The notes beneath the pieces were generated by a model. It did no database searches and was not told the origin of the DNA. It saw nothing but the letters and a program-made list of their open reading frames with translations. The translations under genes were made by a program, and so were the position numbers. A stretch of DNA of 54,527 nucleotides from an uncultured Bacilli bacterium (lineage in GTDB: Bacteria; Bacillota_I; Bacilli_A; RF39; UBA660), in NCBI GenBank assembly GCA_947623825.1, contig CANQHQ010000005.1, positions 1 to 54,527 of the forward strand, given 5' to 3'. This document shows positions 1 to 52,587 of this stretch, piece by piece (the first letter of the stretch is position 1; each line of letters begins with the position of its first letter).

Positions 1-49
1 CCCTATGCCAATTGATTTGAATATTGCTTATGCTGAATATCATAATTAA
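1..49 (+). CDS. 3' end of a gene truncated by the window edge (...PMPIDLNIAYAEYHN*), possibly an IS transposase
   Basis: Open frame ending TAA at 47-49, followed 5 bp later by a terminal-inverted-repeat-like 22-mer. Identity cannot be established from 15 codons. Confidence 0.3.
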   Translation, partial: PMPIDLNIAYAEYHN

Positions 50-54
50 TTATC

Positions 55-76
55 AGTCATTTTGTTTAACATAACT
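55..76 (-). mobile_element. Putative IS terminal inverted repeat (right end)
   Basis: Reverse complement AGTTATGTTAAACAAAATGACT matches 11509-11530 at 19/22 positions. Confidence 0.4.
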
Positions 77-103
77 ATTTTATAAGAAAATAGGCATGTT
101 TTA

Positions 104-112
104 TGGTATAAT
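104..112 (+). promoter_or_regulatory. Extended -10 sigmaA promoter of the giant ATPase gene
   Basis: TG-G-TATAAT upstream of the ORF. Confidence 0.55.
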
Positions 113-166
113 AAGGACAGGTTAGTTATGATTTGTTTCATAACGAAAGGTAGTGGTGAAAGTAGT

Positions 167-3100
167 ATGGATGAGAGATTGGTAGGAAAAGTGATTTTAC
201 TTCAAGATACACCAGAAGGAAAACGAGGGATGATTCAAGGAGAAAATGGGATCATCTATCGTTTTTATCAGTCGAATTTGAAAAGAATCGATACGAGTCA
301 GTTAGAAAAAGGATCCGTTGTTGAATTCACTTATATGCAAAAGAAAAATCAAAAGTATTATGTTCAATCGATGGAATTTTATGATCCGTTTTCTTTGCGA
401 AACAAGGAAAAGTTGGTTTCTCTTCTTGAAAAAAACTATCCAAATCGTACTGAATATCAATCTACGGAGATTCAGAAAGTCTTAGAGTCCTCTTTTTCTA
501 TTTTTTATAAACAACTTGGTTATAAAAAGATTAAAGATTTTTTTCTTGAAAAATATTCTGATGTGTTTGCCTTTGAAGAAAGAACGATGAATAATGTTGA
601 TTATCTTTTTGCGCAGGTTCGTCCTTACGAAGAGTGGCATAAAAAAGAAGAATCTCAATCGCTTGATTTCACCGATGTTTCTTTTGATTCTGTTTCTGAA
701 TCCGATCTTTTAGGGGCAGAGTATCTGAAACTTTTGGAACAGTATGAAAAAGGGGAAGATTATGAAGCCTATTTGAATACTTTTTCTACTTATGATATTT
801 CTCCTACGATGTTACCGGTTTCATGGATAGAAAAAACCGTTCGTATTTGTCAGAAATTGATAGGGGAAGAGGGAGATGCTACTTTCAATTCTTTTGATCG
901 GTTATTAATTCAAGTCAAGACTCCTTACGATTTAACGATTCAAGGTAATACAGCCATGATTCAAGCCGCCTTAGAACATTGTCGTTTTCCTTATCATGAG
1001 ATAGAGTTTTTAAAGAGTTATGGACGTGTCTTCTTTAAACAAAACTTTACTTTGAATCATCGTTGGGAACTTTTGGTTAGGAGATTTACTTTGGCTGAAA
1101 ATAAGTACTATATTTACTTTTTTATCATCGAACTTTATGCTTATAAAAAAGTCAAAGTATTAACGGATTATTTGGATTATGTAGAAAATTCGAGAGATTA
1201 CGAGTATGTCGAAACGTTTTTCCGTTTAGCGGAACAGGTCTTAGATACGGAGGAAAATCATGAAGATTTCTACCAAAAATATGTTCGTTTTATGGGAATT
1301 TCTTTGGATGATGACCGGTGGGAGTATATCGAAAAAACGTATCCAATTGTGCAGAAGAAAGAACATTCTGTCATTCAAGAAATGATTGAGGCGTTTCGTC
1401 AAGAAGACATTCCGAATGATTTTTTGGTTCAATTATTAGATGAACGGATTTCTCTTGCCCTTGGAGAAAAATGTATTAATTATTATTTGTATAAAAAGTA
1501 TCATGGGGCTAATTATTCAGAGAAAGATTTGGATTTGTTTGGAGAAATTTTATACCATTATCCTTCGGCTGATTTAGATGAGGTTATTTTTAATAATAGT
1601 TATTCTTCTTATACGGAAGAAGTAAAACGAGATTTATTGTTGAAGTCATGGCGCTTTTTGGTTGACCATTTAGAAGAACATCCAAAGTATTATTTGGTTT
1701 TATGTTACATCGTTCATCTATTTTCGGAACGTACCACGCTTGCTTCTGAATTATCAGGTATTTCTACAAGATTTTTAGAGAAGCAACTTCAAATTGTCGA
1801 AAAAGATATCGATCGTTTTCAAGAAATTTATCTTCTTTTCCGTTTGAGTGATTCTGGAAAAGAAAAAATGGAACATTTCTATTCTCCTTATATCTATGAG
1901 CGGTATTCCTTGGAAGGAATGTCAGAAGAAGAAGTTCTTCATTTGTTAACTCAATTTCAAAAAGATGGTTGTTCGTTTATTGTCACTTGTCTATTAAATA
2001 AAGAACCACAAGATAGTCCTCTTTTACAAAATCGAGAGATTTTAAAATGTTATTTGGATTCTTTAAAACAAACGCATCGTTATTCGACAGCCATTCAAGT
2101 CATTTTAGAAACGGAATTACTAAGTACTGCCGAAAAAGATAAAGAAGTGATTTCTACTCTTTATCAGAATTATAAAATCTATGGAGCTTCGGATATGGCT
2201 TATGAAGTATTTGAGGCTATATCGATGGAACAGGTTGAACAGTTATGTTTTAATCATTTTATTCCTAATAATGGTGTTCCTATTATTTTGATGTCTATTT
2301 ATGCGAAAAAGAAAGAGTGGCCAAAAGTTTCTTATTTATCTTCCCTTTATTATAATTATTTAAATAAAGGAAATCGTTCTTTCTTTAGTGATTTATTTAG
2401 ACAACGTCCTGTTTTAGCGAAAATTGATAACCACAACAGTGCCGTTCGTGAAGCCTTTTTGACCTACAATAGTGAAGAAATTTTTGAATTCTTGGATTGG
2501 ACAAAATATATTCGACTTATGAATGCCGAAAAATATTATCATCCTGGATATGAAAAGTATGCGAAACCATTGTCTTTCTTACTTAAAACGCCTACTTCGG
2601 CAGGATCTTGGCAAGAATTATTGGCAAGTTTAAAGAGTGCCAACGAACTTTCTTCGGCTTTTGGTTATGCGGCTCAATGCTTTTATATCACTCATTTTCT
2701 AAAGGGTACCTCGGGAGAAGGAAAGATTGATTTTGATGCATTATCGGAATTTGTTTCTTTGTCTACGTTACCTGCGAGTCACAATTTCTTTGCTTTAAAT
2801 AAGGATATTTATTCTGTCGTTCCCGAACCGTATTTGTTAAAATTGAGTGACTATTTGAAAAAAAATGAATTTCTATTTCAACGATATTCCATGAGTCGTA
2901 TCGAAGATGCCCAAGATTATTATGATGCTTTGTTGGGTAGTTTTAACGATTCTAAAAATATTGTCTATTTTGAAGTCGCTCTTTCTGTTTTCATGACGAT
3001 TCGACTAGACGAACCACATTTTGAAAAATATGCTTTGTTCTGTGGATCGAATCGAAATAAGACTTCCTTGTTCCGTATTTTGTTTCAGTTATTGAAAAAG

Positions 3101-6100
3101 GAAAGGAATCAAGAAGAAGTTCATGAGTTTGTGAATTTTTCTTTCTGGAATTGTTCTGCGAAGGAGAAACCCGTTCTTTATTTATTGAATGTTCTTTCTT
3201 CTTCGGATGTTCTTCCGGAAGATATCGAGTCTTTACCACTTTCTCTTCAAGAACGATTTAAAACCGATTGTCTTCAATTGTTAGAGAATTTTCCAGAAAT
3301 CAGTGGATTCCAATCCTTTATTTCTAATGGAGAGTCACTCACTTATCGAATGATCGTTTTGAAATATTTGTTTCAATGTACCTTTGATAATGCTTATTAT
3401 TGGGATTTTGAAAAACTTCTTGCACCGATGCAACTTCAAATACCTTTCGAGTCTGAAGATTTCTTGAATGCTTATTTAGAATATTGTAAAGTTTCTTGTT
3501 GGCAACAGGCGAAATTCAATGATCTGGGAGAAGAATTTATTTCTCGAAGATATATCGAGTTATTATTGATTTATAAATATCAAAATTACCAAGGAATCGG
3601 TGATTGGCAAGACGAAGAAGATATTGTTGATTTGATGCGAGAAAATAATCATGTATCTTTGATTTTTGATAAGTATTTTCAACCGATCAATGAAGTCATT
3701 GAGAAATGGTTAGCGACCGAAGGGGTTACGAAAGAAATCAAGGAGAGTTTCCTTCTATCTTGTATTGTTCTTTCGGCTTCAAAATTGGTTTCTTCTCCGA
3801 TGGTTTCTTCTTTGAATCAACTAAGTGAAGAAGCTTACGAAGTGATGCGAACGATTGTGAAGGATCTCGCACGGGCTTATGTCCTCAGCGTGCTTAAGGT
3901 GTATTTTCAAGCACCAGAAGAAACAAGAAAAGAAATCGAAATTTTTGCTTCTCATGTCGTTTTGGATGCCGCTCGCGTGATTCGGGCTTACGAAAATTCT
4001 GAGGAGAAGGAAGAAGCCCTCGATTTGGTTCAAACTTTCTTATCGACGACCGATAAGCCTGGACAATTGCGTTGGGTTTTTGGTCAAGGTAAAAAAGGAC
4101 GAAAGAAGTTTTTACCGGTTGAAATGTACTGTGCGCATCGAGAACTTGTGATTTCCCTTTTACTTGCGTGTCAATACGATTATGGTTTGATTCAAAATAT
4201 TGGAAACTATGTGAGAAATGGAACGGCTTTGGCGTCTCATCCTGGATATAAAGATTTGTTTGATGCCATTCATAAACCGGGTATTTACGAATATTTAAAT
4301 GCTATTTATTTTGCGCATCGACATGAAAAAGAGGAAGCCATTCGTTGTTTTTATCGGATCGATGATGTCAAACAAATTCCTCCAATGTGGCAAATGGAGT
4401 ATCAAACTCTAGAAAAATATATTCGTGGTGAAGGAGAATTTTCAACGCAATTAATTCGAAATAATATTGATATGATGCGTGAAACGATGATTCAAAAAGT
4501 GGATTTCTTAAAACCATTTCAGAAAGGTTCTCTTTCCGATCGTCAGAATGAAGAAGAAGAGGATTCGGAAGAAGATGTTACAGAAATTGCCCAATCTCTA
4601 TTCAGCTTTATCAATACGAAAAATGTTCTATCAGATCGAATCCGTTCGGCAGAAGTGGTTTTCACTTATCTACTTGGAATTCGTAATTCTAAGGAAAGAA
4701 AAAATAATGTGGATTCCCGTTTCTCTATTCTTGTGAAAACGGCAGCCAGTATTTCGAAAGAGAAATTTTCTAAGACTTATAACGAATTGATATTTGATTA
4801 TGGATTCCTTTTATTGGACGAAGAAAATCGTTCGACGACCTATGAGAAAAAAGTGGATATTTTAATCGATTTGTTTCGTAGTTTTGACTTATTAAAAGAA
4901 TCCCATAAGAATCAATTTGGACCGATGTTAAAAAGTTGTTTCCAACGTTTATTGTTAGAAAAACAACTCGATGCTTCTTTCCTTTCTTACGAAAAATGGT
5001 TAGCGATTTATCCGATTCTTTGTGATATGGCTCAGAAGTTCCATTTATCGATGGACGATGGTCCAAAACTACATGAATGGGTTACGCAGTGTCTCGAGTT
5101 AGAAAGAATGAATCCAACCGTTACGAAAAAGAGAAAAGAATTAGAAAAACTTCCATCGAATGTGGAATTTTCTCCAATCGCCATGAATTTCTTAATGGCG
5201 GTGCAGAAAGAGTATCAAAAATTGATTTCAGGAACCTTGTTGACCATCATGATTGACAATCATGAAATCGAAAAACGTTCGATTTTCTTCAGTATTCAAA
5301 ATAGTAAAGAAAGTAAAATTTCGGTTAACTTAGAAAGTGATGATGTCTATATTGAGGCAGAATACTTTTTACCAGGAGAAGAAAAACCGAATGTGGCACG
5401 TTCTTTCTGTTCTCATCATGTTTCTATTTTAAGACCAGGAGAGCGGAGTGGGGAACAGATTGAAGTTCCGCAGTATATTTTGAATTCTTTGAAGGATGAG
5501 GATTCTTTGATTATTCACATCTCTGTGGTCGTTCATGGTCATAGAATTTGTGATAATTCGAGTGAAGGGGAATCATTTACTTTCTTCCGTAATCGTCAAA
5601 AGATGTTACCGACACCAAAGACGAAATACAATACGACGGATTGTGCTTTTACAGAAGGTAATATGGGATTTGGGCGTAAGAAGGAAATCGAGTGGTTAAA
5701 TGCGACCATTCCAAATCATGGATTATCGATTATTTATGGACCGTCGCGCACCGGAAAATCTTCTTTACTACAGTACCTTACCAATTTCTTAGCGGTCGAT
5801 TATCAAAAGAATCCTTCGAAGTATCGGGAAGATAGCGAAGCAAACGCTCTTCAAGGAATTTATGTTCTTCCTGTAGCGGATAGTCTTCATCCAGGGGATT
5901 ATGTGAACCTTCCTTCTACGGAAGAAGAGATTTTAGAATATTTGTTCATTGAAAGTATTCGTCGTGGACTTCTTCAAGGAAAAAGAAAAATTGTGATGGG
6001 AGAAGAATTTTCTTCTACCTGTGTGGATCAAATATTAGAGATTCTTTCACATCGCGAAGAAAGTATTGCGGACCGTCTTTCTTTGGTAAGTGATGTTCTT

Positions 6101-8035
6101 TCACAGGTAAATGGAGAACTATGGCTTTTACTAGATGAATTTCAACAAGTCATCGAGAAATGGAAGATGCAGAACAATTATCAACTCTTGTCGTTATGTA
6201 ATTCTTTGAGAAATGGAAATACAAAAATTCGTATCGTTCTATGTGGTTCCGATGATTTCGTAAAATTGATTTTAAGTAATGATCAGAATTGGTCTCCGAT
6301 TTTCTCTATCGTTCAAGAAGAGATGTTGGCCGTTGGTCAATTGGATGCACCTGATTTTGGAGAGATGTTATCCGATTCTCATGTTTGGGGAGAAAAAGTG
6401 CCATTTACCAAGAATTCTCTTTCTTATATGTTTGAGTATACGGGTGGAAATGCCATGTATGGAAAACTAATTGGTAATAAGATTATCGAGGAAATTCAAG
6501 GAAATCGTTTGACGAATCGGGAATTTATTTATCCAGCTGATATTTCTCGTATTGTTGCGGAAGTACTAGATGAACAGAATTCTGATATGTCCGTCAATGA
6601 AGCCCAAAACAATTTAATTACGAATACGACTAAAAATTTGGAACAGGAGAACCGGTATCTTGTCTATATTGCGGATTGTATGCAGAAAGATAGTAATTCT
6701 GTCGGTGTTCCTCTTTCCAGAATTTATGAAAACTTCTGTAATACGAAACCATACGATATCAATCTTTCTTTGAAAGTATGTTGTGTACGAGGAATTTTGA
6801 AGGAAGAAGAGATAGAAAAAGAAGTCTTTTATAAATTTAGTACGTTATTCTACTATAGTTTATATTGTTTCAAGGCGAAGAAAAATGGAGTCGTGACCGA
6901 AGTAAAAGAAGAGGAAGATACGGAAAGTAATGAGACGATGATTATCGATACCTACAATGAACTTTCTGATTCGAAAAAGCAACAGACTTTGTCTACTTTA
7001 TGGGGTATCACTCCCCAAGAAGTTACAGAGGATTTACGAGGAAAATTTGGAGTCAATGTGCAGGGAGACTACATTAGTGAGGGAGGAACGAAGAACGTTC
7101 TTCATATCGAAAATGTCATTCAATCTTTCTCGACCATTTTATCAGGAAATCTTTCTGGTCCCGAATTATTAGAAGCCTATGAAAAGATTCCTACGTTATC
7201 GGATTATTATTCTCAGGAACAAAAGAATCAAATTCTTGAATTGGAAGAAAAGATAGAGAAAACAGATGATGAAGAAGAGAAGCAACAACTTCTTTTCGAA
7301 GCAGAAGAAATCAAGAATCCAGTAGAGAAAAAATATGCGAATGATTTTGTTCAGGCAGCGATTATTGAAAACGATGAGTTTGACTTTGATGAAATCGATA
7401 GCCAACGGATTCGTTATTTACTTCATTTATCGAAATATGCGGATATCAGTTATTTAGAGCATTTGCCAAAAGAGTTTCAAATTCAATTCGATTTTGCGAT
7501 TCTTCTTCATAACGTTTTCGACAAATTAGAAAAGATGCAGGAAGAAAAAGAGGATGCCCATTCTTCGAAGATTCGTTTGGATTATTGTCCTTTGGCGATT
7601 ATGTATTGTAAATTGGTCGAAGCGATTTTGAAAAAGAAGCATACGCCCGTTTATATTCGAGATTTACCGGATGCTACCATCGGAAGAGATCAGGTTACTT
7701 TCGGGGCGTTGACGAATCCAAGAGTTTTTGATTCCAATAAAAAACATCTCACGATTGGAGCGTTTACGACACATATTGTTTATCCGAGGTACAATTTAGA
7801 AAAAGATGAAAATTCTTCATCAATCAATCGTAATAATATTCAGAAATTAAGTCATGGAGAAACGCAACTTCTTGAAAAATGGGAAACGCATGCGAAAGAG
7901 ATGGCGAAAGTTTTATCGATTCGAAACCTTTCTGCTCATGAAGCGGTTCGGGTGACAAAAAGAACCTTTGATATTTTGATTACCACTTTATTTGCGGAGG
8001 GAGAATTGTCTCGATTATTAGAATTAGGAGAATAA
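167..8035 (+). CDS. Giant multidomain protein: cold-shock/OB-like + LOTUS/OST-HTH-like + long helical region + STAND/AAA-like P-loop ATPase + C-terminal HEPN-like domain
   Basis: ORF 128..8035, likely start ATG167 after GGTGA. N-terminal GKV...RGMIQGENG..YRFYQSNL...LEKGSVVEF (CSD-like). YKQLGYKKIKDFF (LOTUS-like). GFGRKKEIEWL, Walker A GPSRTGKS, Walker B LWLLLDEFQ. C-terminal DYCPLAIMYCKLVE and IRNLSAH (Rx4H). Confidence 0.75.
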   Translation: MDERLVGKVILLQDTPEGKRGMIQGENGIIYRFYQSNLKRIDTSQLEKGSVVEFTYMQKKNQKYYVQSMEFYDPFSLRNKEKLVSLLEKNYPNRTEYQSTEIQKVLESSFSIFYKQLGYKKIKDFFLEKYSDVFAFEERTMNNVDYLFAQVRPYEEWHKKEESQSLDFTDVSFDSVSESDLLGAEYLKLLEQYEKGEDYEAYLNTFSTYDISPTMLPVSWIEKTVRICQKLIGEEGDATFNSFDRLLIQVKTPYDLTIQGNTAMIQAALEHCRFPYHEIEFLKSYGRVFFKQNFTLNHRWELLVRRFTLAENKYYIYFFIIELYAYKKVKVLTDYLDYVENSRDYEYVETFFRLAEQVLDTEENHEDFYQKYVRFMGISLDDDRWEYIEKTYPIVQKKEHSVIQEMIEAFRQEDIPNDFLVQLLDERISLALGEKCINYYLYKKYHGANYSEKDLDLFGEILYHYPSADLDEVIFNNSYSSYTEEVKRDLLLKSWRFLVDHLEEHPKYYLVLCYIVHLFSERTTLASELSGISTRFLEKQLQIVEKDIDRFQEIYLLFRLSDSGKEKMEHFYSPYIYERYSLEGMSEEEVLHLLTQFQKDGCSFIVTCLLNKEPQDSPLLQNREILKCYLDSLKQTHRYSTAIQVILETELLSTAEKDKEVISTLYQNYKIYGASDMAYEVFEAISMEQVEQLCFNHFIPNNGVPIILMSIYAKKKEWPKVSYLSSLYYNYLNKGNRSFFSDLFRQRPVLAKIDNHNSAVREAFLTYNSEEIFEFLDWTKYIRLMNAEKYYHPGYEKYAKPLSFLLKTPTSAGSWQELLASLKSANELSSAFGYAAQCFYITHFLKGTSGEGKIDFDALSEFVSLSTLPASHNFFALNKDIYSVVPEPYLLKLSDYLKKNEFLFQRYSMSRIEDAQDYYDALLGSFNDSKNIVYFEVALSVFMTIRLDEPHFEKYALFCGSNRNKTSLFRILFQLLKKERNQEEVHEFVNFSFWNCSAKEKPVLYLLNVLSSSDVLPEDIESLPLSLQERFKTDCLQLLENFPEISGFQSFISNGESLTYRMIVLKYLFQCTFDNAYYWDFEKLLAPMQLQIPFESEDFLNAYLEYCKVSCWQQAKFNDLGEEFISRRYIELLLIYKYQNYQGIGDWQDEEDIVDLMRENNHVSLIFDKYFQPINEVIEKWLATEGVTKEIKESFLLSCIVLSASKLVSSPMVSSLNQLSEEAYEVMRTIVKDLARAYVLSVLKVYFQAPEETRKEIEIFASHVVLDAARVIRAYENSEEKEEALDLVQTFLSTTDKPGQLRWVFGQGKKGRKKFLPVEMYCAHRELVISLLLACQYDYGLIQNIGNYVRNGTALASHPGYKDLFDAIHKPGIYEYLNAIYFAHRHEKEEAIRCFYRIDDVKQIPPMWQMEYQTLEKYIRGEGEFSTQLIRNNIDMMRETMIQKVDFLKPFQKGSLSDRQNEEEEDSEEDVTEIAQSLFSFINTKNVLSDRIRSAEVVFTYLLGIRNSKERKNNVDSRFSILVKTAASISKEKFSKTYNELIFDYGFLLLDEENRSTTYEKKVDILIDLFRSFDLLKESHKNQFGPMLKSCFQRLLLEKQLDASFLSYEKWLAIYPILCDMAQKFHLSMDDGPKLHEWVTQCLELERMNPTVTKKRKELEKLPSNVEFSPIAMNFLMAVQKEYQKLISGTLLTIMIDNHEIEKRSIFFSIQNSKESKISVNLESDDVYIEAEYFLPGEEKPNVARSFCSHHVSILRPGERSGEQIEVPQYILNSLKDEDSLIIHISVVVHGHRICDNSSEGESFTFFRNRQKMLPTPKTKYNTTDCAFTEGNMGFGRKKEIEWLNATIPNHGLSIIYGPSRTGKSSLLQYLTNFLAVDYQKNPSKYREDSEANALQGIYVLPVADSLHPGDYVNLPSTEEEILEYLFIESIRRGLLQGKRKIVMGEEFSSTCVDQILEILSHREESIADRLSLVSDVLSQVNGELWLLLDEFQQVIEKWKMQNNYQLLSLCNSLRNGNTKIRIVLCGSDDFVKLILSNDQNWSPIFSIVQEEMLAVGQLDAPDFGEMLSDSHVWGEKVPFTKNSLSYMFEYTGGNAMYGKLIGNKIIEEIQGNRLTNREFIYPADISRIVAEVLDEQNSDMSVNEAQNNLITNTTKNLEQENRYLVYIADCMQKDSNSVGVPLSRIYENFCNTKPYDINLSLKVCCVRGILKEEEIEKEVFYKFSTLFYYSLYCFKAKKNGVVTEVKEEEDTESNETMIIDTYNELSDSKKQQTLSTLWGITPQEVTEDLRGKFGVNVQGDYISEGGTKNVLHIENVIQSFSTILSGNLSGPELLEAYEKIPTLSDYYSQEQKNQILELEEKIEKTDDEEEKQQLLFEAEEIKNPVEKKYANDFVQAAIIENDEFDFDEIDSQRIRYLLHLSKYADISYLEHLPKEFQIQFDFAILLHNVFDKLEKMQEEKEDAHSSKIRLDYCPLAIMYCKLVEAILKKKHTPVYIRDLPDATIGRDQVTFGALTNPRVFDSNKKHLTIGAFTTHIVYPRYNLEKDENSSSINRNNIQKLSHGETQLLEKWETHAKEMAKVLSIRNLSAHEAVRVTKRTFDILITTLFAEGELSRLLELGE

Positions 8036-8065
8036 AACTAGGAAAGATGCCTTTTCTAGTTTTTT
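8035..8065 (+). terminator. Intrinsic terminator
   Basis: AAACTAGGAAAG-atgc-CTTTTCTAGTTT followed by a T run. Confidence 0.7.
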
Positions 8066-8114
8066 CTTGTTGTTTTTTTCTTTCTTTGTTAGAATGAAGA
8101 TAGGAGAATTGGAT

Positions 8115-46392: not shown

Positions 46393-49300
46393 ATGAAAAA
46401 AATGTTTCTTTGGATTCATAAAAGAATTGGGATTTTTACCATTGGTCTCATTGCAATTTTTATGATTGGAATGGGGCTTTTGATGAACTCATATTCCTTA
46501 AATGAAGCAATTCCAAAAATTACTTTTTCTTCTAAAACATTAAGCTATGAAAGAAACGAACCAGGAAGTTGGCAGGTAGAGAAGAGTGCCGAATGGATTG
46601 GCTTAGGAAAAGCGAGAATTACGTTTCAAGTAGATACGATTTTAAAGACAGAAAATCCAAATACAGATGTCATTTTAGTTCTTGATATTTCTGGTTCTAT
46701 GGCAGGAGAAAAATTAGACCGAGTGAAAAAAGATTCTGTCGATTTATTGACAGCGTTGTTATCAAATGACAACAATCATGCGGCATTGATTACGTTTGAT
46801 ACAGAATCTGAATTGGTATCTGGTTTTACTAATGATAAGGATAGTTTAATAAAAAAGATTTCTTCTCTTTCTGATCACGGTAATACGAATTATTATCAAC
46901 CACTTGTCCATGTAGATGAGATTTTAAAAGACTATTCCAAGGAGAAAGATAAAGAGTGTGTTGTTTTATTCTTGACGGATGGATATCCAAACGAAGATAT
47001 TCCAAATCAGATAGGAGAATACAAATATTTAAAGAGTGAATATCCATGGTTAAAGATTCATGGGGTTCAATACGAGATGGGTGAAGAAGTCTTGGACCCT
47101 ATTAAAGAGATTAGTGATAGTCAGTTTATTGCGGATATGACTACACTAAACAATGTTTTATTTGATGCCTCTGTTGTGCCAACTCCTTATGACAATTTTG
47201 TATTAACAGATTTTATTGATAATGAATATTTTGATTTACAAGATGTTTCGAAACTTCAATCTTCTTTCGGAAAAGTAGAGTTGAAAGATGATAATGGAGT
47301 ACCCAAAGTCACATGGGATTTAAGTGGTTTAAAGTCAGGACAAGGAGCTACTTTAACGATTGATATTGATTTGAAAGAAGAACTTCTTGAAGAAGAAGGC
47401 CTTTTCCCAACGAACAAGAGTAGTAAAGTGGTTTCTCAAATCGAAGAGAATCAAGAAGATGTCATGACCGAAGAAACTCCTATTTTGTCAAGTCATTACA
47501 ATGTGATTTATGAAGGAAATTCCCCAAGTGGATGTAGTGTGAGTGGAGTACCAAGTAGAACTAGCCACGCAGTTTTTGAAACGGTAGAAAAGAGTGATGT
47601 CGTTCCTACCTGTGAAGGATATCAATTTAAAGGATGGATGATTGTTACTGAAGGAGTAAAAAAACTCAATGATGACTACTTTACAATGCCTGGAAAAGAT
47701 GTTGTGGTTCGAGCGGAATGGGGAAGAATGGGATTATCGAAGTCTGTGGAAGGAGAAGTTTATGTTCAAAGAGATCCAATCCTTCAAAGAATTGGTTTTG
47801 AGAGTTATAATAATGAACTTTGGAAATACCAAACTTCGATTACGAAGATAGTGATTGAGGGAGACCAAACATCAAAAGAAGGTTCTACAGAGGAACTTAC
47901 TTGGGATATTTCTGCAGCTAAGGATGGATCGGTTCGTGGATTGTTGGTACCGAATTCCGATAATCCTTCGACTTATACTGCCTATATTCAAGGGTTAGAT
48001 GGAAAAGTAATTGCGAACCCCGATAGTTCTTACTTATTTGGTGGTAATTATTTTTATTCTAGTAATCATTTTTCAAAGTTAACTGCAATTGAGGGACTAG
48101 AATTATTGGATACAAGTCAAGTAACTGATATGAGTTATATGTTTGCTGCTTGTAATGCCTTAATTAGTCTAGATTTAAGTAATTGGAACAAGAGTCAAGT
48201 AACCGATATGAGTGGTATGTTTTCTTATTGTAGATCCTTAACCAGTTTAAAAGGCTTAAGTAGTTGGGATACGAGTCAAGTAACCGATATGAGTTATATG
48301 TTTGAACATTGTGAGTCCTTAAGCAATTTAGATTTTGTAAGTGGCTGGGACACAAGTCACGTAATCAATATGAGTTATATTTTTAGTTATTGTTCTCTCT
48401 TAACTAGTTTAGATTTAAGTGGTTGGGTTACCAGTCAGGTAACTGATATGAGTGGTATATTTTCCAGCTGTTCATCTTTAACTAATTTAGATTTTGTAAG
48501 TGGCTGGGACACAAGTCACGTAACCAATATGAGTCATATGTTTTCTAGTTGTGAATCCTTAACCAGTTTAGATTTAAGTGGCTGGGACACGAGTCAAGTA
48601 ACCGATATGGGTGCTATGTTTTATCGTTGTAGTGCCTTAACTAGTGTTGGAAATTTAAATGGGTGGAACACAGGTCAAGTAACCAATATGGGTGCTATGT
48701 TTTCCGGTTGTAGAGCTTTAACCAGTGTTGGAGATTTAAGCAGTTGGGACACACGTCAAGTAACTTCTATGTATTCTATGTTTGATGATTGCCGGGCTTT
48801 AACTAGTCTAGATTTAAGTAGTTGGAGTACAGGTCAAGTAATCAATATGAATTTTATGTTTTATAGTTGTAACGCCTTAACCAGTGTTGGAGATTTAAGT
48901 GGTTGGGACACAAGTCATGTAACTAATATGTGGGCTATGTTTTCTGGTTGCTGGCGCTTAACCAGTGTTGGAAATTTAAGTGGTTGGGACACAAGTCATG
49001 TAACCAATATGAGTTGGATGTTTGATGGTTGTTCTCTCTTAATCAATTTAGATTTTGTAAGTGGTTGGGAAACAGGTCAAGTAACCAATATGAGTGATAT
49101 GTTTGGTGGTTGTTCTCTCTTAATCAGTTTAGATTTGAGTGGTTGGGATACGAGTCAAGTAACCGATATGAGTGGTATGTTTTCTTATTGTCAAACCTTA
49201 GCTAGTTTGGATTTAAGTAACTGGAAAACTGGTCAAGTAGCCGAGATGAGTGAGATGTTTCGTGATTGTGAATCTTTAACCAAATTAAATTTTCTAAGTG

Positions 49301-52300
49301 ACTGGGACACAAGTCATGTAACCAATATGAGTTGGATGTTTGATGGTTGTGAATCCATAATTAGTTTAGACTTGAGTAGTTGGGACACAAGTCAAGTAAC
49401 TAATATGTATATGATGTTTTCTGATTGTAGTGCCTTAACTAGTGTTGGAAATTTAAATGGGTGGAACACAGGTCACGTAACTGATATGTATTGTATGTTT
49501 TTTGGTTGTAGCGGATTAATTAGTGTCGGAGATTTAAGCAGTTGGGACACAAGTAAAGTAACTGATATGAGTTCCATGTTTTCTGGTTGTAGTACTTTAA
49601 CCACAACAATCAGTATTTTAAATAATTCGGTGACTAAATATGATAGTATGTTTTCTAGTGCTGCTACTCAAAATAATGCCCAAATTGTAGTCAATTATTC
49701 TAGTGAATCAGAAACGTTAGTGGATCAAATGATTGCTACAAAAAACAATACAAATTCAAACGTGGTAAAAGCAAGTAGTCCGTGTGTAGAACATTCTGTA
49801 ACGATTCAAGGTAGAAATGACATTATTGCGACTCCATCGAGTGGATTGGTGTCTAACAAAATTACATTGATTCCAACCAATGATGATTATATGGTTTCTT
49901 CGTTTGAAATGAATGGAAAGAAAATAAATGGAAATATCTTTTTTATGCCGAATGAAGAAGCTGTGATTACGAATGTAACTACTGTAGCGCAAGCAATATT
50001 TGAGTCTAAACATAATCCATATGATAACAATCTAGATCAAGAATATGAACATACTTTTGAAGGTGCAAATACTTTAACGGTTACCTTGGAGTATCAAATA
50101 GGCGATGATTGGGATTATTTTTATCTATATGGTTCTAACGAAATACAGTATGGAAGGTATGGCGGATCCACTAAGCAAATAGAAACGATCATTATTCCTG
50201 GAGATTATATTAAAATTTTATTTCATACAAATGGTAGTGGTAACGATTATTATGGTTTTAAAGCGACTATTGTTCCAAATTATCCACATTCTATTACTAT
50301 TCAAGATAATCCAGATGTTGTAGCTAATAAAGCAAGTGCCGCTTATGGAGAAGTTGTCAGTTTAAATGTGATGCAAGGTGATTATATGGTTACCTCGTTT
50401 GACATGAATGGAGAGAGAATAGAAGGAAATACTTTTATTATGCCGAATGAAGAAGCTATCATTACGAATGTAACTGTGAGTATAGGAAATATCGTAGAGT
50501 CTAATCATAATCCATATGATAATAGCTTAGACGAAACCTATGAACATACTTTTGAAGGTGCAGGAAGTTTGACCGTTACCTTGGAGTACCAAACCGAAAG
50601 TACTTACCTTGATTATATTTATTTATATGATTCCAATTGGAAACAGTATGGAAAGTACGGCGGTACTACTAAGAAGACAGAAACAATTCTTATTCCTGGA
50701 AATTATATTAGAATTTTATTTCATACAAATGCTAGTTATAACGACTATTATGGCTTCAAAGCGACTGTTGTTCCAAATTATCCAAATTCTGTTACGATTC
50801 AAGGTAATCCAAATGTTGTAGCTGACAAGACAAGTGCCTCTTATGGAGAAACAGTGACTCTTAGTTCTACTTTAAGTGAATTTGTGGTAGTTTCATTTGA
50901 GATGAATGGAGAGAAAATAGAAGGAAATACCTTTACTATGCCGGATGAAGACGTTGTAATTACCAATATTGTTTTCGGGGGTAGACACTCGATTGCAATT
51001 AGAGGAAATGATGATATTGAGGCACGTCCAAATATGGCTTTTGTGAGAGATACGGTAACGTTATCATCCATTTCTGGAAACTGTTACGTCACTTCCTTTG
51101 AGATGAACGGAACCAAAATAGAAGGAAATACCTTTACTATGCCGAATGAGGAAGTTGAAATTACAAATATTGCTGTAGAAGTGAAACATCCGATTGTCAT
51201 TAAAGGAAATGAGGATATTGAAGCACGTCCGAATATGGCTTATGCCGGAGATACAGTGACGTTATCCTCTATTTCTGGAAATTGTTATGTCACTTCCTTT
51301 GATATGAATGGAACAAAAATAGAAGGAAATACCTTTACTATGCCAAATGAGGAAGTTGAAATTACAAATATTGCTGTAGAAGTGAAACATCCGATTGTCA
51401 TTGAAGGAAATGACGATATTGAAGCACATCCAAATATGGCTTATGCTGGAGAAACTGTGACATTATCATCAGTCTCTGGGAACTATTACGTTACTTCATT
51501 TGAGATGAATGGAGTAGAAATTGTAGGAAATACTTTTACCATGCCAAATGAAGAAACTATGATTACAAATGTAACTGTGAGTATAGGAAGCATCATAGAG
51601 TCCAATCATAATCCATATGATAATAACCTAGAACAAGAATATGAACATACTTTTGAAGGTGCAGGAAGTTTGACTGTTACCTTGGAGTATCAAACAGAAG
51701 ATATCGATTATGATTATATTGGTTTATATGATTCTAACGAAACAGAGTATGGAAAGTATGGAGGACCTGATAAGACAACAGAAACGATTATTATCCCTGG
51801 AAATTATATTAAAATTTTATTTTATACAGATGGTAGTATTAATGACTATTATGGATTCAAAGCCATTGTGATTCCAAATTATCCACATTCTATTACGATT
51901 CAAGGCAATCCAAATGTAGTAGCTGATAAGATAAATGCGGCTTATGGAGAGGTTGTCAAGTTAAATGTAGTGAATGGTGACTATAGAGTTGCTTCGTTTG
52001 AGATGAATGGAACAAAAATAGAAGGAAATACCTTTACTATGCCGGATGAAGATGTTGAAATTACAAATATTATTGTAGAAGCTAATTATCCTATTGTAAT
52101 TACAGGAAATGAAGATATTGTGGCAAATCCAAACAGAGCTTTTGCAGGAGATACAGTGACGTTGACATCTATTCTTGAAAACTATTATGTAACTTCATTT
52201 GAGATGAATGGAGAAAAAATAAAAGGAAATACTTTTACTATGCCGGATGAAGAAGTTGAGATTACGAATGTAAAGGTGGTTTTAGGAACTATCATAGAGT

Positions 52301-52587
52301 CCAACCATAATCCATATGATAATGACTTAGATAAAGAATATGAACATACTTTTGAAGGTGCTACTTCTTTGATGGTTATATTGGAGTATCAGACAGAAGA
52401 CATTAGTTATGATTATATTTGTTTATATGATTCTGATGAAACACAATATGGAGAGTATGGAGGGGAAACTAAGACAACAGAAACAATTGTTGTCTCTGGA
52501 AATTATATTAAGATCCTATTTCATACAGATGAGAGTGTCAATGACTATTATGGATTCAAAGCTACTGTGATTCCAATTTATGAATAA
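46393..52587 (+). CDS. Giant surface adhesin: N-terminal TM, vWA, B-repeat, 19 BspA/DUF285-type LRRs, 8 ~67-aa beta repeats and 4 CUB-like domains
   Basis: MIDAS DISGS and LTDG; repeats WDTSQVTDMSxMFxxCxxL; four ESxHNPYDN...DY..LY....YG.YGG...G.YI.ILF.T......YYGFKA modules. Confidence 0.88.
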   Translation: MKKMFLWIHKRIGIFTIGLIAIFMIGMGLLMNSYSLNEAIPKITFSSKTLSYERNEPGSWQVEKSAEWIGLGKARITFQVDTILKTENPNTDVILVLDISGSMAGEKLDRVKKDSVDLLTALLSNDNNHAALITFDTESELVSGFTNDKDSLIKKISSLSDHGNTNYYQPLVHVDEILKDYSKEKDKECVVLFLTDGYPNEDIPNQIGEYKYLKSEYPWLKIHGVQYEMGEEVLDPIKEISDSQFIADMTTLNNVLFDASVVPTPYDNFVLTDFIDNEYFDLQDVSKLQSSFGKVELKDDNGVPKVTWDLSGLKSGQGATLTIDIDLKEELLEEEGLFPTNKSSKVVSQIEENQEDVMTEETPILSSHYNVIYEGNSPSGCSVSGVPSRTSHAVFETVEKSDVVPTCEGYQFKGWMIVTEGVKKLNDDYFTMPGKDVVVRAEWGRMGLSKSVEGEVYVQRDPILQRIGFESYNNELWKYQTSITKIVIEGDQTSKEGSTEELTWDISAAKDGSVRGLLVPNSDNPSTYTAYIQGLDGKVIANPDSSYLFGGNYFYSSNHFSKLTAIEGLELLDTSQVTDMSYMFAACNALISLDLSNWNKSQVTDMSGMFSYCRSLTSLKGLSSWDTSQVTDMSYMFEHCESLSNLDFVSGWDTSHVINMSYIFSYCSLLTSLDLSGWVTSQVTDMSGIFSSCSSLTNLDFVSGWDTSHVTNMSHMFSSCESLTSLDLSGWDTSQVTDMGAMFYRCSALTSVGNLNGWNTGQVTNMGAMFSGCRALTSVGDLSSWDTRQVTSMYSMFDDCRALTSLDLSSWSTGQVINMNFMFYSCNALTSVGDLSGWDTSHVTNMWAMFSGCWRLTSVGNLSGWDTSHVTNMSWMFDGCSLLINLDFVSGWETGQVTNMSDMFGGCSLLISLDLSGWDTSQVTDMSGMFSYCQTLASLDLSNWKTGQVAEMSEMFRDCESLTKLNFLSDWDTSHVTNMSWMFDGCESIISLDLSSWDTSQVTNMYMMFSDCSALTSVGNLNGWNTGHVTDMYCMFFGCSGLISVGDLSSWDTSKVTDMSSMFSGCSTLTTTISILNNSVTKYDSMFSSAATQNNAQIVVNYSSESETLVDQMIATKNNTNSNVVKASSPCVEHSVTIQGRNDIIATPSSGLVSNKITLIPTNDDYMVSSFEMNGKKINGNIFFMPNEEAVITNVTTVAQAIFESKHNPYDNNLDQEYEHTFEGANTLTVTLEYQIGDDWDYFYLYGSNEIQYGRYGGSTKQIETIIIPGDYIKILFHTNGSGNDYYGFKATIVPNYPHSITIQDNPDVVANKASAAYGEVVSLNVMQGDYMVTSFDMNGERIEGNTFIMPNEEAIITNVTVSIGNIVESNHNPYDNSLDETYEHTFEGAGSLTVTLEYQTESTYLDYIYLYDSNWKQYGKYGGTTKKTETILIPGNYIRILFHTNASYNDYYGFKATVVPNYPNSVTIQGNPNVVADKTSASYGETVTLSSTLSEFVVVSFEMNGEKIEGNTFTMPDEDVVITNIVFGGRHSIAIRGNDDIEARPNMAFVRDTVTLSSISGNCYVTSFEMNGTKIEGNTFTMPNEEVEITNIAVEVKHPIVIKGNEDIEARPNMAYAGDTVTLSSISGNCYVTSFDMNGTKIEGNTFTMPNEEVEITNIAVEVKHPIVIEGNDDIEAHPNMAYAGETVTLSSVSGNYYVTSFEMNGVEIVGNTFTMPNEETMITNVTVSIGSIIESNHNPYDNNLEQEYEHTFEGAGSLTVTLEYQTEDIDYDYIGLYDSNETEYGKYGGPDKTTETIIIPGNYIKILFYTDGSINDYYGFKAIVIPNYPHSITIQGNPNVVADKINAAYGEVVKLNVVNGDYRVASFEMNGTKIEGNTFTMPDEDVEITNIIVEANYPIVITGNEDIVANPNRAFAGDTVTLTSILENYYVTSFEMNGEKIKGNTFTMPDEEVEITNVKVVLGTIIESNHNPYDNDLDKEYEHTFEGATSLMVILEYQTEDISYDYICLYDSDETQYGEYGGETKTTETIVVSGNYIKILFHTDESVNDYYGFKATVIPIYE
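48100..49600 (+). repeat. Coding tandem array of 19 LRR units (78/81 bp)
   Basis: Recurrent DNA framework tgggacacaagtca(a/c/t)gtaac...atatgagt...atgttt...tgt...ttaac. Confidence 0.9.
49790..52584 (+). repeat. Coding repeat region: eight ~201-bp units interleaved with four ~285-bp CUB-like units
   Basis: Near-identical sequence at 51121 and 51322 (201-bp period); cataatccatatgataa recurs four times. Confidence 0.88.

Follow-up and report, generated by a model that had tools for sequence, protein, structure and literature searches.

The giant gene and the domains of its product

At one end of contig CANQHQ010000005.1 of an uncultured Bacilli bacterium (assembly GCA_947623825.1; the whole 54,527-nucleotide stretch, read on its forward strand, is referred to here as the window) lies a single intact gene for a very large protein, which we call the giant. 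Its coding sequence (167..8035; this and all the features of the gene are on the + strand) comprises 2,622 codons and a stop, and specifies, in order, modules resembling cold-shock domains (CSDs) and LOTUS domains, a central body of about 1,500 residues, a P-loop NTPase, and a C-terminal domain like those of HEPN ribonucleases (RNases). How might such a protein act? Our preferred interpretation, to which we would give a probability of roughly 0.55, is that it is a stand-alone member of an undescribed giant family of the NLR/STAND kind (nucleotide-binding leucine-rich-repeat proteins; signal transduction ATPases with numerous domains), and that it serves as a nucleotide-switched RNase of a conflict system. 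A preliminary description, made from the letters of the DNA, had already proposed a single intact gene at these coordinates with two nucleic-acid-binding-like modules at its N-terminus, a STAND-type ATPase and a terminal HEPN, and all of these features are borne out by what follows; the motifs GPSRTGKS, LLLDEF and RNLSAH likewise translate exactly where it had placed them.

The NTPase, which is of the ATPase_2/nSTAND1 type (5672..6457; delimited by Pfam profiles and invariant motifs), contains the Walker A sequence GPSRTGKS (residues 1871-1878; 5738..5761) and the Walker B sequence LLLDEF (residues 2000-2005; 6125..6142). When this segment of the window protein is taken in isolation it matches ATPase_2 (PF01637) with 33.3 bits, just over the cut-off of 33.2, and the whole protein scores 30.4, which is under it. 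Across the family (the 23 genome loci described in the next section), ATPase_2 is matched by 23/23 members (best E 1.5e-12), as is AAA_22, with nSTAND1 (PF20703) matched by 19/23 and AAA_16 by 10/23; no member of the 23 departs from G-x-S-R-x-G-K or D-E-F-Q, and in an alignment of 19 full-length sequences 35 columns of the region are at least 90% conserved. Language-model look-alikes of the NTPase in the Atlas fall in nSTAND1, ATPase_2, AAA_16 and NACHT clusters (0.92-0.96), and profile searches of PDB sequences, with either the full-length family or the ATPase region, returned matches only at the P-loop level or insignificant ones. The ATPase_2 profile is matched through position 219 of 225, and the 140 residues that come next (6458..6877), which have 20 columns at least 90% conserved and include the motifs YTGGNAxYGK..., VRGIL... 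and F-x-T-x-FYY, are on sequence grounds probably the helical and winged-helix part of the same NTPase unit. An acidic linker of poorly conserved sequence (6878..7447) separates them from the C-terminal domain.

This last domain (7448..8032, delimited from an AlphaFold2 (AF2) model and a census of motifs) carries both of the motifs that are hallmarks of the HEPN superfamily, namely Rx4-6H with a polar residue (N, D or H) after the arginine, and a conserved acidic residue, typically in the form Ex3[KR] (PMC3710099). In the giant these are represented by R-N-x3-H (RNLSAH, R2599-N-L-S-A-H2604; 7922..7939), immediately preceded by DYCPLAIMYCKLVE, and by E-x3-K (E2498-A-I-L-K2502; 7619..7633) in the first long helix of the domain. 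The census was taken on the best 150 matches of a profile search of 1.84 billion representative sequences, with 32 fragments of fewer than 150 profile positions excluded: among giants, the glutamate was found in 74/74, lysine or arginine in 65/74, the arginine in 74/74, the asparagine in 72/74 and the histidine in 74/74, and the motifs were kept in 44-45 of the 45 shorter proteins in which the domain is largely complete. The arginine and histidine, whose loss from homologues would have told against the initial idea of a terminal HEPN, are thus present in every giant in the census. Moreover, the Walker and HEPN motifs are invariant in a full-length alignment of 19 sequences that are only 20-32% identical, so they are not there by chance. 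The C-terminal domain has 25 columns at least 90% conserved.

The fold of the domain was compared, as an AF2 model of the last 215 residues (21-row alignment; pLDDT 88.3, pTM 0.87), with 48,161 representative PDB chains by an exhaustive aligner and with the PDB by Foldseek. Just two of the 48,161 chains reached Z 8 or more, both of the HEPN RNase RnlA (6y2r_A, Z 9.2, root-mean-square deviation (rmsd) 3.5, 143 residues aligned; and 7aex, 9.0); next came RnlA again (6y2p_B, 8.7, in a second look), Roquin (7.7), LsoA (5hy3, 7.5) and the HEPN protein AF_0298 (6.9), and lower still HEPN toxins of HEPN-MNT pairs, an AMPylated HEPN toxin (6.4), AbiA (6.2) and Csm6 (6.1). From Z 7.2 downward, unrelated helical bundles are interleaved with the HEPN matches. 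A second structural comparison agrees in putting RnlA and HEPN RNases at the top. Taken alone, the modelled fold is suggestive of HEPN rather than conclusive, and the case is made stronger by the conservation of both hallmark motifs; we consider it quite likely that the domain belongs to the HEPN superfamily, in a clade for which there is no Pfam model.

At the other end of the protein, an AF2 model of residues 1-320, counted from the ATG at 167 (15-row alignment, pLDDT 81.8), begins with a beta-barrel (residues 1-73; 167..385) whose best match is a CSD of UNR (4qqb_Y, Z 10.6, rmsd 1.9, 68/72 aligned), followed by Lin28A (8.9), CRHSP-24 (8.7) and CspB (8.5). In Foldseek the model had no match in the PDB at E <= 0.001, its CSD rows lying at E 1.7e-3 to 1e-2 with a TM score of 0.77 for the best E and up to 0.80. 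The window protein has no match to the Pfam CSD model, which does pick up one relative (at locus L013; E 5.6e-6, 26.6 bits, the cut-off being 27), and, by eye, the RNP2-like stretch retains Y, F and Y and the RNP1-like stretch is without the usual aromatic residues. A cold-shock-domain fold of the oligonucleotide/oligosaccharide-binding (OB) type at the N-terminus is therefore supported at the level of the model. The next residues (72-153; 380..625) form three helices and a beta-hairpin resembling LOTUS (OST-HTH) domains: those of TDRD7 (3rco, Z 6.7, 74/76 aligned), TDRD5 (3s93, Z 6.6) and a bacterial protein (2kzv, Z 6.7). Pfam OST-HTH (PF12872) finds this part of the window protein at E 0.004 and 17.4 bits, under its cut-off of 23.8. 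Then comes a stretch that is probably a disordered linker (644..712; model residues 160-182, pLDDT below 50). The head as a whole is variable, with hidden Markov models built from the family detecting a CSD in 5/23 and LOTUS in 7/23 genome loci, 6 of the 23 being without a 5' end (five truncated open reading frames (ORFs), and L008), and LOTUS copies numbering from 0 to 5 per protein.

Between head and NTPase, the central region (residues 196-1690; 713..5197) matched no Pfam family, and it is conserved throughout, with 46 columns at least 90% conserved and spread over its full length. It had been described initially as about 1,500 residues of helix; this holds for the modelled residues 178-320, whereas the rest has been judged only from its helix-friendly composition. 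Internal repeats were found neither by self-BLAST nor by hhalign among six 250-residue blocks (probabilities of 2% or less), and the idea of a body of TPR or HEAT-type repeats recognisable from sequence was rejected on these grounds. No shorter protein with the central region occurred among 8,000 word-sharing candidates that were scored, and a weak lead from the Atlas (DUF5717 at 0.91, with low recognition) was not relied upon. A further segment (5225..5647; residues ~1700-1840), put down as beta-rich in the preliminary description and so a candidate beta-rich region, leads into the NTPase, is aligned in all 23 rows and contains the invariant residues N1725 and G1775.

The reading frame is open from 128 to 8035 (2635 aa), so that an ATG at 128 is also available, the ATG at 167 being M14 of the frame. 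We consider ATG 167 the likely initiation codon because residue 1 of the closest relative (P0084, 80% identical, and 67% over the first 163 residues) aligns with M14, because more distant homologues begin about five residues before a conserved glycine (G20), and because an RBS-like GGTGA (155..159, read from the sequence) lies 7 nt before it. Directly after the stop codon comes an intrinsic-terminator-like hairpin (8034..8063; 13-bp stem, 4-nt loop, T-rich tail) found in a terminator scan that gave 7 such sites in the region against 5.0 expected; with this terminator of its own, the gene is an independent unit. Of the promoter and terminator that the preliminary description had assigned to the gene, the terminator stands; the promoter comes down to an extended -10-like TGgTATAAT (104..112), which was picked out by eye and is not among the sites of a scan that needs a -35 box, and that scan performed at chance level (31 sites against 29.1 expected), giving no statistical support for promoters. 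The TTG listed as the start of the next ORF, of the VanZ family (8067; 8034-8103 region), is only 4 nt past the hairpin, and the true VanZ start is probably further downstream.

The contig begins at base 1 of the window, so the upstream side of the giant gene is missing. Bases 1 to about 94 (1..94, the end of a multicopy repeat) match C20:1-91, C20:27448-27536(-) and C38:14483-14577(-) at 93-96% identity, and these are three other contig ends of the same genome; from this it appears that the assembly broke at a multicopy element adjoining the giant gene. The same sequence of about 90 nt thus terminates four contigs, one of which (C20) it bounds on both sides, and probably represents the end of a multicopy element that the assembly does not contain. 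The element had been called IS-like (resembling an insertion sequence, IS) at the outset: its multicopy nature is confirmed, and it is at most a candidate IS. The sequencing runs listed for the source are four DNA runs from one rabbit-gut sample, with no RNA run listed.

Distribution, horizontal spread and exchange of the C-terminal domain

A word-indexed search of 5.8 billion proteins yielded 31 other proteins at E <= 0.001, of 1,995-3,085 residues, most of which are 23-31% identical to the query over 76-99% of its length (in three the coverage is 30-40%, and for one the identity is 80%). When one genome was scanned for each of about 185,000 species, 23 loci came to light, and every one was in a metagenome bin of gut or faecal origin assigned to the Bacillota; the hosts belong to the Acutalibacteraceae, Lachnospiraceae, Oscillospiraceae and Christensenellaceae, with one representative of the Erysipelotrichales. 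At 18 of these loci the ORF is of 2,532-3,073 aa, and at the other five it is interrupted by a contig end. In the 19-sequence alignment conserved columns occur along the full length of the protein, most densely in the NTPase, the post-ATPase module and the C-terminal domain. NCBIfam has no match to the giant.

The gene is accessory and moves horizontally, as judged from sequence comparisons, rather than being part of a core inheritance, which the preliminary description had recognised would be fatal to its proposal. A whole-protein search of 60 related genomes, 28 of them from other species within the genus, did not find it, and the C-terminal profile scored in only 2 of 399 genomes of the class, the window's own included (two further genomes could not be scored). 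On the family tree, host families are intermixed: sister pairs from different host families are supported at 100/99, 100/100 and 99/96, Lachnospiraceae requires at least four changes, and the labels of host families cluster no more than they do in shuffles (27/200). This scatter argues for horizontal transfer. Using the whole protein, tblastn found no match in 72,556 plasmid records or 50,697 phage records, nor did a scan of metagenome contigs with a single protein find a relative. One relative (L025) is on an IMG/VR contig classed as viral. The 13 flanking ORFs scanned there (at least 150 aa, within 10 kb) include none with a PHROG of the phage structural category, a methyltransferase and a helicase being the only informative matches, and the notion of a phage-borne gene was rejected for this reason.

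In 22 of the 23 genome loci, R-N-x3-H lies about 40 residues from the C-terminal end. At the exceptional locus, L013, the HEPN-like domain is replaced by a REase_DpnII-MboI domain (L013:15596-16855; E 2.9e-28) in a protein that retains the CSD-LOTUS head and the NTPase, and it follows that the C-terminus is a swappable effector slot. The HEPN-like domain also occurs outside the giants: its profile finds 240 proteins at E <= 0.001 (77 of them at E <= 1e-30), and in a Pfam scan of 35 of the weaker matches listed it terminates eight shorter proteins with N-terminal NTPases of the nSTAND1, ATPase_2, AAA_16 or NACHT type, six superfamily 1 (AAA_11/AAA_12) helicases together with three fragments, and four DEAD/ResIII helicases, while 14 of the 35 matched no family significantly. 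Conflict systems are commonly recognised by nuclease tails that can be exchanged on a chassis of NTPase or helicase (PMC8195603, PMC3710099), and by analogy this pattern may point to such a role here.

The exchange bears on the possibility that the terminal domain is not an RNase at all, and is a HEPN-like bundle used only for the binding of nucleotides or other ligands, or for dimerisation. The structural scores are moderate, with no significant Foldseek match, and the matches include relatives of HEPN that are non-catalytic (GlnE 3k7d, HI0074, TT1696), all of which would suit such an idea. It seems highly improbable, in that the non-catalytic HEPN domains fused to nucleotidyltransferases lose Rx4-6H (PMC3710099), whereas here the arginine, the histidine and the upstream glutamate are invariant and the asparagine nearly so (72/74), and in that the slot can be filled instead by a bona fide nuclease domain.

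Could the giant have a non-immune role in RNA metabolism or quality control, its ATPase remodelling ribonucleoproteins and its HEPN domain processing cellular RNAs, somewhat as in eukaryotic Swt1, Las1 and SACSIN-type proteins? CSD and LOTUS modules are typical of that setting (PMC2848206), the central region is conserved over its full length, and the window copy has housekeeping genes for neighbours. Yet the failure to find the protein in any of 60 close relatives and its occurrence in 2/399 genomes of the class (one of them the window's own), a phylogeny incongruent with host families, the replacement of its effector by a restriction-type DNase in one relative and a number of N-terminal LOTUS copies that varies from 0 to 5 make this very unlikely. 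A nucleotide-switched RNase of a conflict system, for which we argue, leads on to the genes that surround the giants.

Partner genes and neighbourhoods

At 7 of the 20 loci with downstream DNA, the gene directly downstream of the giant encodes a homologous protein of 861-1,148 aa (24-64% identity between members). WYL-domain matches were obtained for six of the seven, in one case with a WCX match as well; the position at which WYL models match differs between members (at about residues 260-550 or 670-860). A profile of the WYL protein, run against the PDB, matched only CapW, at E 0.58. In four cases (L002, L009, L011 and L017) there follows a homologous HD protein of about 228 aa (38-58% identity). 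The pairs are at L002:14571-18043, L009:17693-21830, L011:17426-20811 and L017:16198-19547, and the WYL-protein loci with no HD listed are L006:3988-6870, L022:14137-16719 and L023:8548-11202. At L025, ORFs of 919 and 229 aa (L025:15903-19358) occupy equivalent places, and the 229-aa ORF aligns with the HD set. When the partners were examined with PADLOC, they matched only the generic WYL and Cas3-HD models. The description of the system at the outset as consisting of a single gene therefore does not hold for the family as a whole.

These conserved partners occur at 7/20 loci but not beside the window copy, so the window copy may be an incomplete system. A three-gene system can be envisaged, in which a giant acts with a double-WYL protein of about 900 aa that senses a ligand or nucleic-acid signal, and with an HD phosphohydrolase of about 228 aa that is a second effector or degrades the signal; the window copy would then be an orphan, perhaps unregulated, inactive or decaying. 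In keeping with this, the WYL and HD proteins just described (the HD homologue at L025 included) are found in both of the deep branches of the tree, among them the two nearest relatives of the window copy, at L002 and L009. But the giant ORF and all of its motifs are intact at the 13 of 20 loci without an adjacent partner, the window gene itself is intact at 2,622 codons with its own terminator, and the presence of partners is not clustered on the tree (six changes, with 305 of 500 shuffles as low), which would also fit a separate module that is frequently co-located; furthermore, the 919-aa ORF of L025 is a putative partner, placed by its position. We think an obligate three-gene system unlikely, and continue to favour a giant that can stand alone as a nucleotide-switched RNase in conflicts.

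Neighbourhoods were surveyed at 20 loci with flanks, by taking non-overlapping ORFs of at least 100 aa within 5 kb (153 ORFs); of the 146 with at least 115 aa, 145 were scanned with Pfam and 129 (plus two window ORFs) with PADLOC, and the mad3 and mad8 matches of ordinary ABC transporters were left out of the defence count. Known or candidate defence genes were present at 7/20 loci: those for Lamassu LmuABC and a type II restriction-modification (RM) pair at L011, the M and S subunits of a type I RM system at L018, AbiEi at L014, a TOTE-type primase-helicase-PLD protein at L013, MzaB at L019, the candidates PDC-S01 and PDC-S04 at L017, and a PDC-S05/RhuM candidate at L021. Mobility genes (MobC, IS66, integrase, resolvase, TrwB/TraG) were also present at 7/20, and one kind or the other at 11/20. 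From these associations, the indication of a defence role for the family is circumstantial.

The mobility genes raise the possibility that mobile elements use the giant as a weapon, selfish or competitive, and that it is not an anti-phage gene; it would then work by exclusion or in the manner of an addiction module, its RNase being released on loss of the element or entry of a rival. Seven of the 20 relatives adjoin genes for conjugation or mobilisation, integrases, resolvases or insertion sequences, the window copy adjoins a multicopy repeat, one relative is on a contig classed as viral, and the tree supports horizontal spread. However, we detected no conserved antitoxin-like partner, the plasmid and phage records (72,556 and 50,697) gave no tblastn match, and the neighbourhoods contain defence genes just as often as mobility genes. 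The mechanism would be the same as that which we propose for a conflict-system RNase, so that the sequence evidence cannot separate the two, and we consider such a weapon improbable, to about the same degree as the three-gene system.

Relationship to known systems and possible mode of action

In several features the giant resembles the Avs (AVAST) and bacterial NACHT proteins: it is a single large polypeptide whose STAND-type NTPase is flanked on one side by a large variable region and on the other by an effector of nuclease type; its effector is exchangeable; it is found in defence islands and near mobile elements, with a patchy distribution; and the oligomerisation-activated logic that we propose for it would be analogous to theirs (PMC12803255). 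In contrast to the Avs arrangement, which has an N-terminal effector, a central STAND module and a C-terminal TPR-like sensor, the giant is reversed, with its putative sensor N-terminal and its effector C-terminal; its NTPase is of the ATPase_2/nSTAND1 type, and no PADLOC Avs or bNACHT model matched it; it is about twice the usual size of an Avs; and its head consists of CSD and LOTUS modules in place of a TPR protein sensor. It may still work like Avs in spite of the reversed order. The RnlA and LsoA proteins, HEPN RNases of toxin-antitoxin systems active against T4, provide the best structural matches and share a C-terminal Rx4H-type motif, but with only 11-14% identity and no match found at the level of sequence; the giant has no RnlB- or Dmd-type antitoxin in its context, and its domain is the tail of a 2.6-kaa NTPase.

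Does the reversed order make this an undescribed type, as was first suggested? Not of itself: a table of 2013 already lists fusions that join STAND ATPases to S1 OB-folds and HEPN (PMC3710099, Table 1), and a paper of 2021 describes STAND proteins that carry HEPN effector modules (PMC8195603). These predicted conflict systems have the same kinds of part as the giant, namely a STAND NTPase, an OB-fold domain for RNA binding and a HEPN RNase, and they (Npun_F6454 and others) are set apart by description, the passages on them in the two papers making no mention of LOTUS, of a 1,500-residue body or of WYL or HD proteins. It is the family itself that appears to be undescribed; its kind, STAND-HEPN fusions and NLR/STAND-like nucleases, is in print in those papers. 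For the specific family, for the CSD-LOTUS-NTPase-HEPN combination and for the WYL/HD partners we found no description in full-text searches of the literature, although supplementary architecture tables could list it, and to this extent the suggestion of novelty stands. Nor, apart from a marginal match of the giant to mad8, does any specific model of a catalogued anti-phage system in PADLOC-DB 2.0.0 (a library from 2023) match the giant, the WYL protein or the HD protein.

Other systems share parts of the architecture. CoCoNuT systems have CSD-like OB folds, an NTPase, HEPN RNases and an association with RM, and their targeting of RNA was inferred on the same grounds as ours, but they are multi-gene operons with an McrB GTPase, McrC and the coiled-coil protein CnuE, none of which is at the giant locus (PMC10542128). 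Some bacterial proteins combine OST-HTH with an RNase of the NYN/LK-nuclease group, sometimes with a cold-shock-type OB fold, but these are small proteins with an NYN/PIN-like nuclease, and the words 'ATPase' and 'NTPase' do not occur in the main text of their description (PMC2848206). Among eukaryotes, the LOTUS-Tiamat proteins have N-terminal LOTUS domains (up to four), an ATPase and a C-terminal nuclease, and SACSIN is a giant ATPase-bearing protein with a terminal HEPN; however, their ATPases are of the GHL (Hsp90/MORC-like) type and not P-loop enzymes, and the Tiamat nuclease is PD-(D/E)xK (preprint 10.64898/2026.09.30.754977). Homology is not implied outside LOTUS and HEPN, and the architecture may therefore be regarded as convergent.

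How, then, might the giant work? We infer the following sequence of events, in which the trigger, the binding of RNA, the assembly into oligomers, the cleavage of RNA and the effect in defence are all predictions. The N-terminal CSD and LOTUS modules would bind RNA or some other single-stranded nucleic acid, and the 1,500-residue body would be a sensor or scaffold. A trigger, such as infection or an incoming mobile element, might then allow the ATPase_2/nSTAND1 domain to bind or exchange nucleotide and so drive self-association, which would join the C-terminal HEPN domains into an active RNase site (HEPN active sites are composite and require dimerisation: preprint 10.64898/2026.09.30.754977). 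Cleavage of cellular and invader RNA would arrest either the cell or the invader, an outcome of the abortive-infection type.

Several observations weigh against this interpretation. On the side of the effector, a Z of about 9 is below the level that the aligner's own guidance asks for when helical bundles are compared, and in Foldseek the C-terminal model had no match at E <= 0.001 (best 0.54; the weak top rows were Csm6, HEPN-MNT HEPN toxins, RnlA and AbiF). Matches to Pfam HEPN families in 21 members were all sub-threshold, HEPN_RiboL-PSP appearing in 5/21 (best E 0.0011), DUF4145 in 5/21, HEPN_MAE_28990 in 4/21, and Swt1 and Apea in 1/21 each; the commonest weak match was DUF6548 (6/21). 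An hhalign comparison with an assembled DUF4145 alignment gave a probability of 18% over 32 columns, and membership of DUF4145 was rejected since only the motif aligned. On the side of defence, PADLOC gave the giant only a marginal P-loop match, to mad8 (E 8e-4), and 9/20 loci have neither defence nor mobility genes. Downstream of the window copy lie ordinary envelope genes (for a VanZ protein, a glycosyltransferase, surface proteins and FtsW/RodA), none of which had a match in PADLOC. There is no WYL or HD gene beside the window's giant, and the WYL partner was not found in the window's genome (one query, with the genome 93% complete).

A bolder version of the same proposal would be that the giant is a bacterial NLR that senses RNA. 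Its CSD/LOTUS array and helical body would read foreign RNA, the P-loop switch would assemble the protein, and the HEPN RNase (in one relative, a DNase) would fire, so that the family would be a prokaryotic counterpart of the LOTUS-ATPase-nuclease and SAMD9-type antiviral giants of eukaryotes, with WYL and HD proteins as a second regulatory layer in part of it. We regard this as doubtful, a little less so than the orphan-system and mobile-weapon ideas. To our knowledge, the known bacterial STAND and NLR-like defence proteins sense phage proteins. If RNA-binding modules do form the sensing end of the giant, the range of what STAND receptors detect would be broader, and the giant ATPase-nucleases of animals that bear LOTUS domains or OB folds would gain a tractable model in bacteria. 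The family in any case supplies a HEPN clade that lies outside all Pfam models and is shared with helicase and small-STAND architectures, a conserved region of 1,500 residues, and a recurrent WYL-HD gene pair; and even if the giant should prove to be just another abortive-infection RNase, the defence repertoire of gut Bacillota is extended by a family that is large, conserved and so far unannotated.

Some other genes seen near the giants should be mentioned. In an Acutalibacteraceae metagenome-assembled genome, a 1,023-aa ORF (L009:4825-7893) has a match (E 4.4e-17) to PF05183, the family of RNA-dependent RNA polymerases of eukaryotic type; this ORF adjoins a MobC/NikA gene and is about 1.7 kb upstream of the giant gene. 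A SpoVG-family gene is directly upstream of the giant in two relatives from Lachnospiraceae (L012:1156-1593 and L013:8450-8914). Beside three relatives (L007:14818-19079, L020:10764-15640 and, on the opposite strand, L015:1888-6068) there is a recurring run of small genes, which includes an XRE-type helix-turn-helix protein, several ORFs of no family and an OmpA-family protein of about 400 aa, and which has no PADLOC match. Another giant ORF, of 2,056 aa, also with no PADLOC match, converges on the 3' end of a relative (L018:14840-21007, - strand). Finally, within the window, a 2,064-aa ORF (46393-52587, + strand) with VWA, six DUF285 repeats, an InlB-type repeat and a C-terminal CUB-like match probably encodes a surface adhesin.

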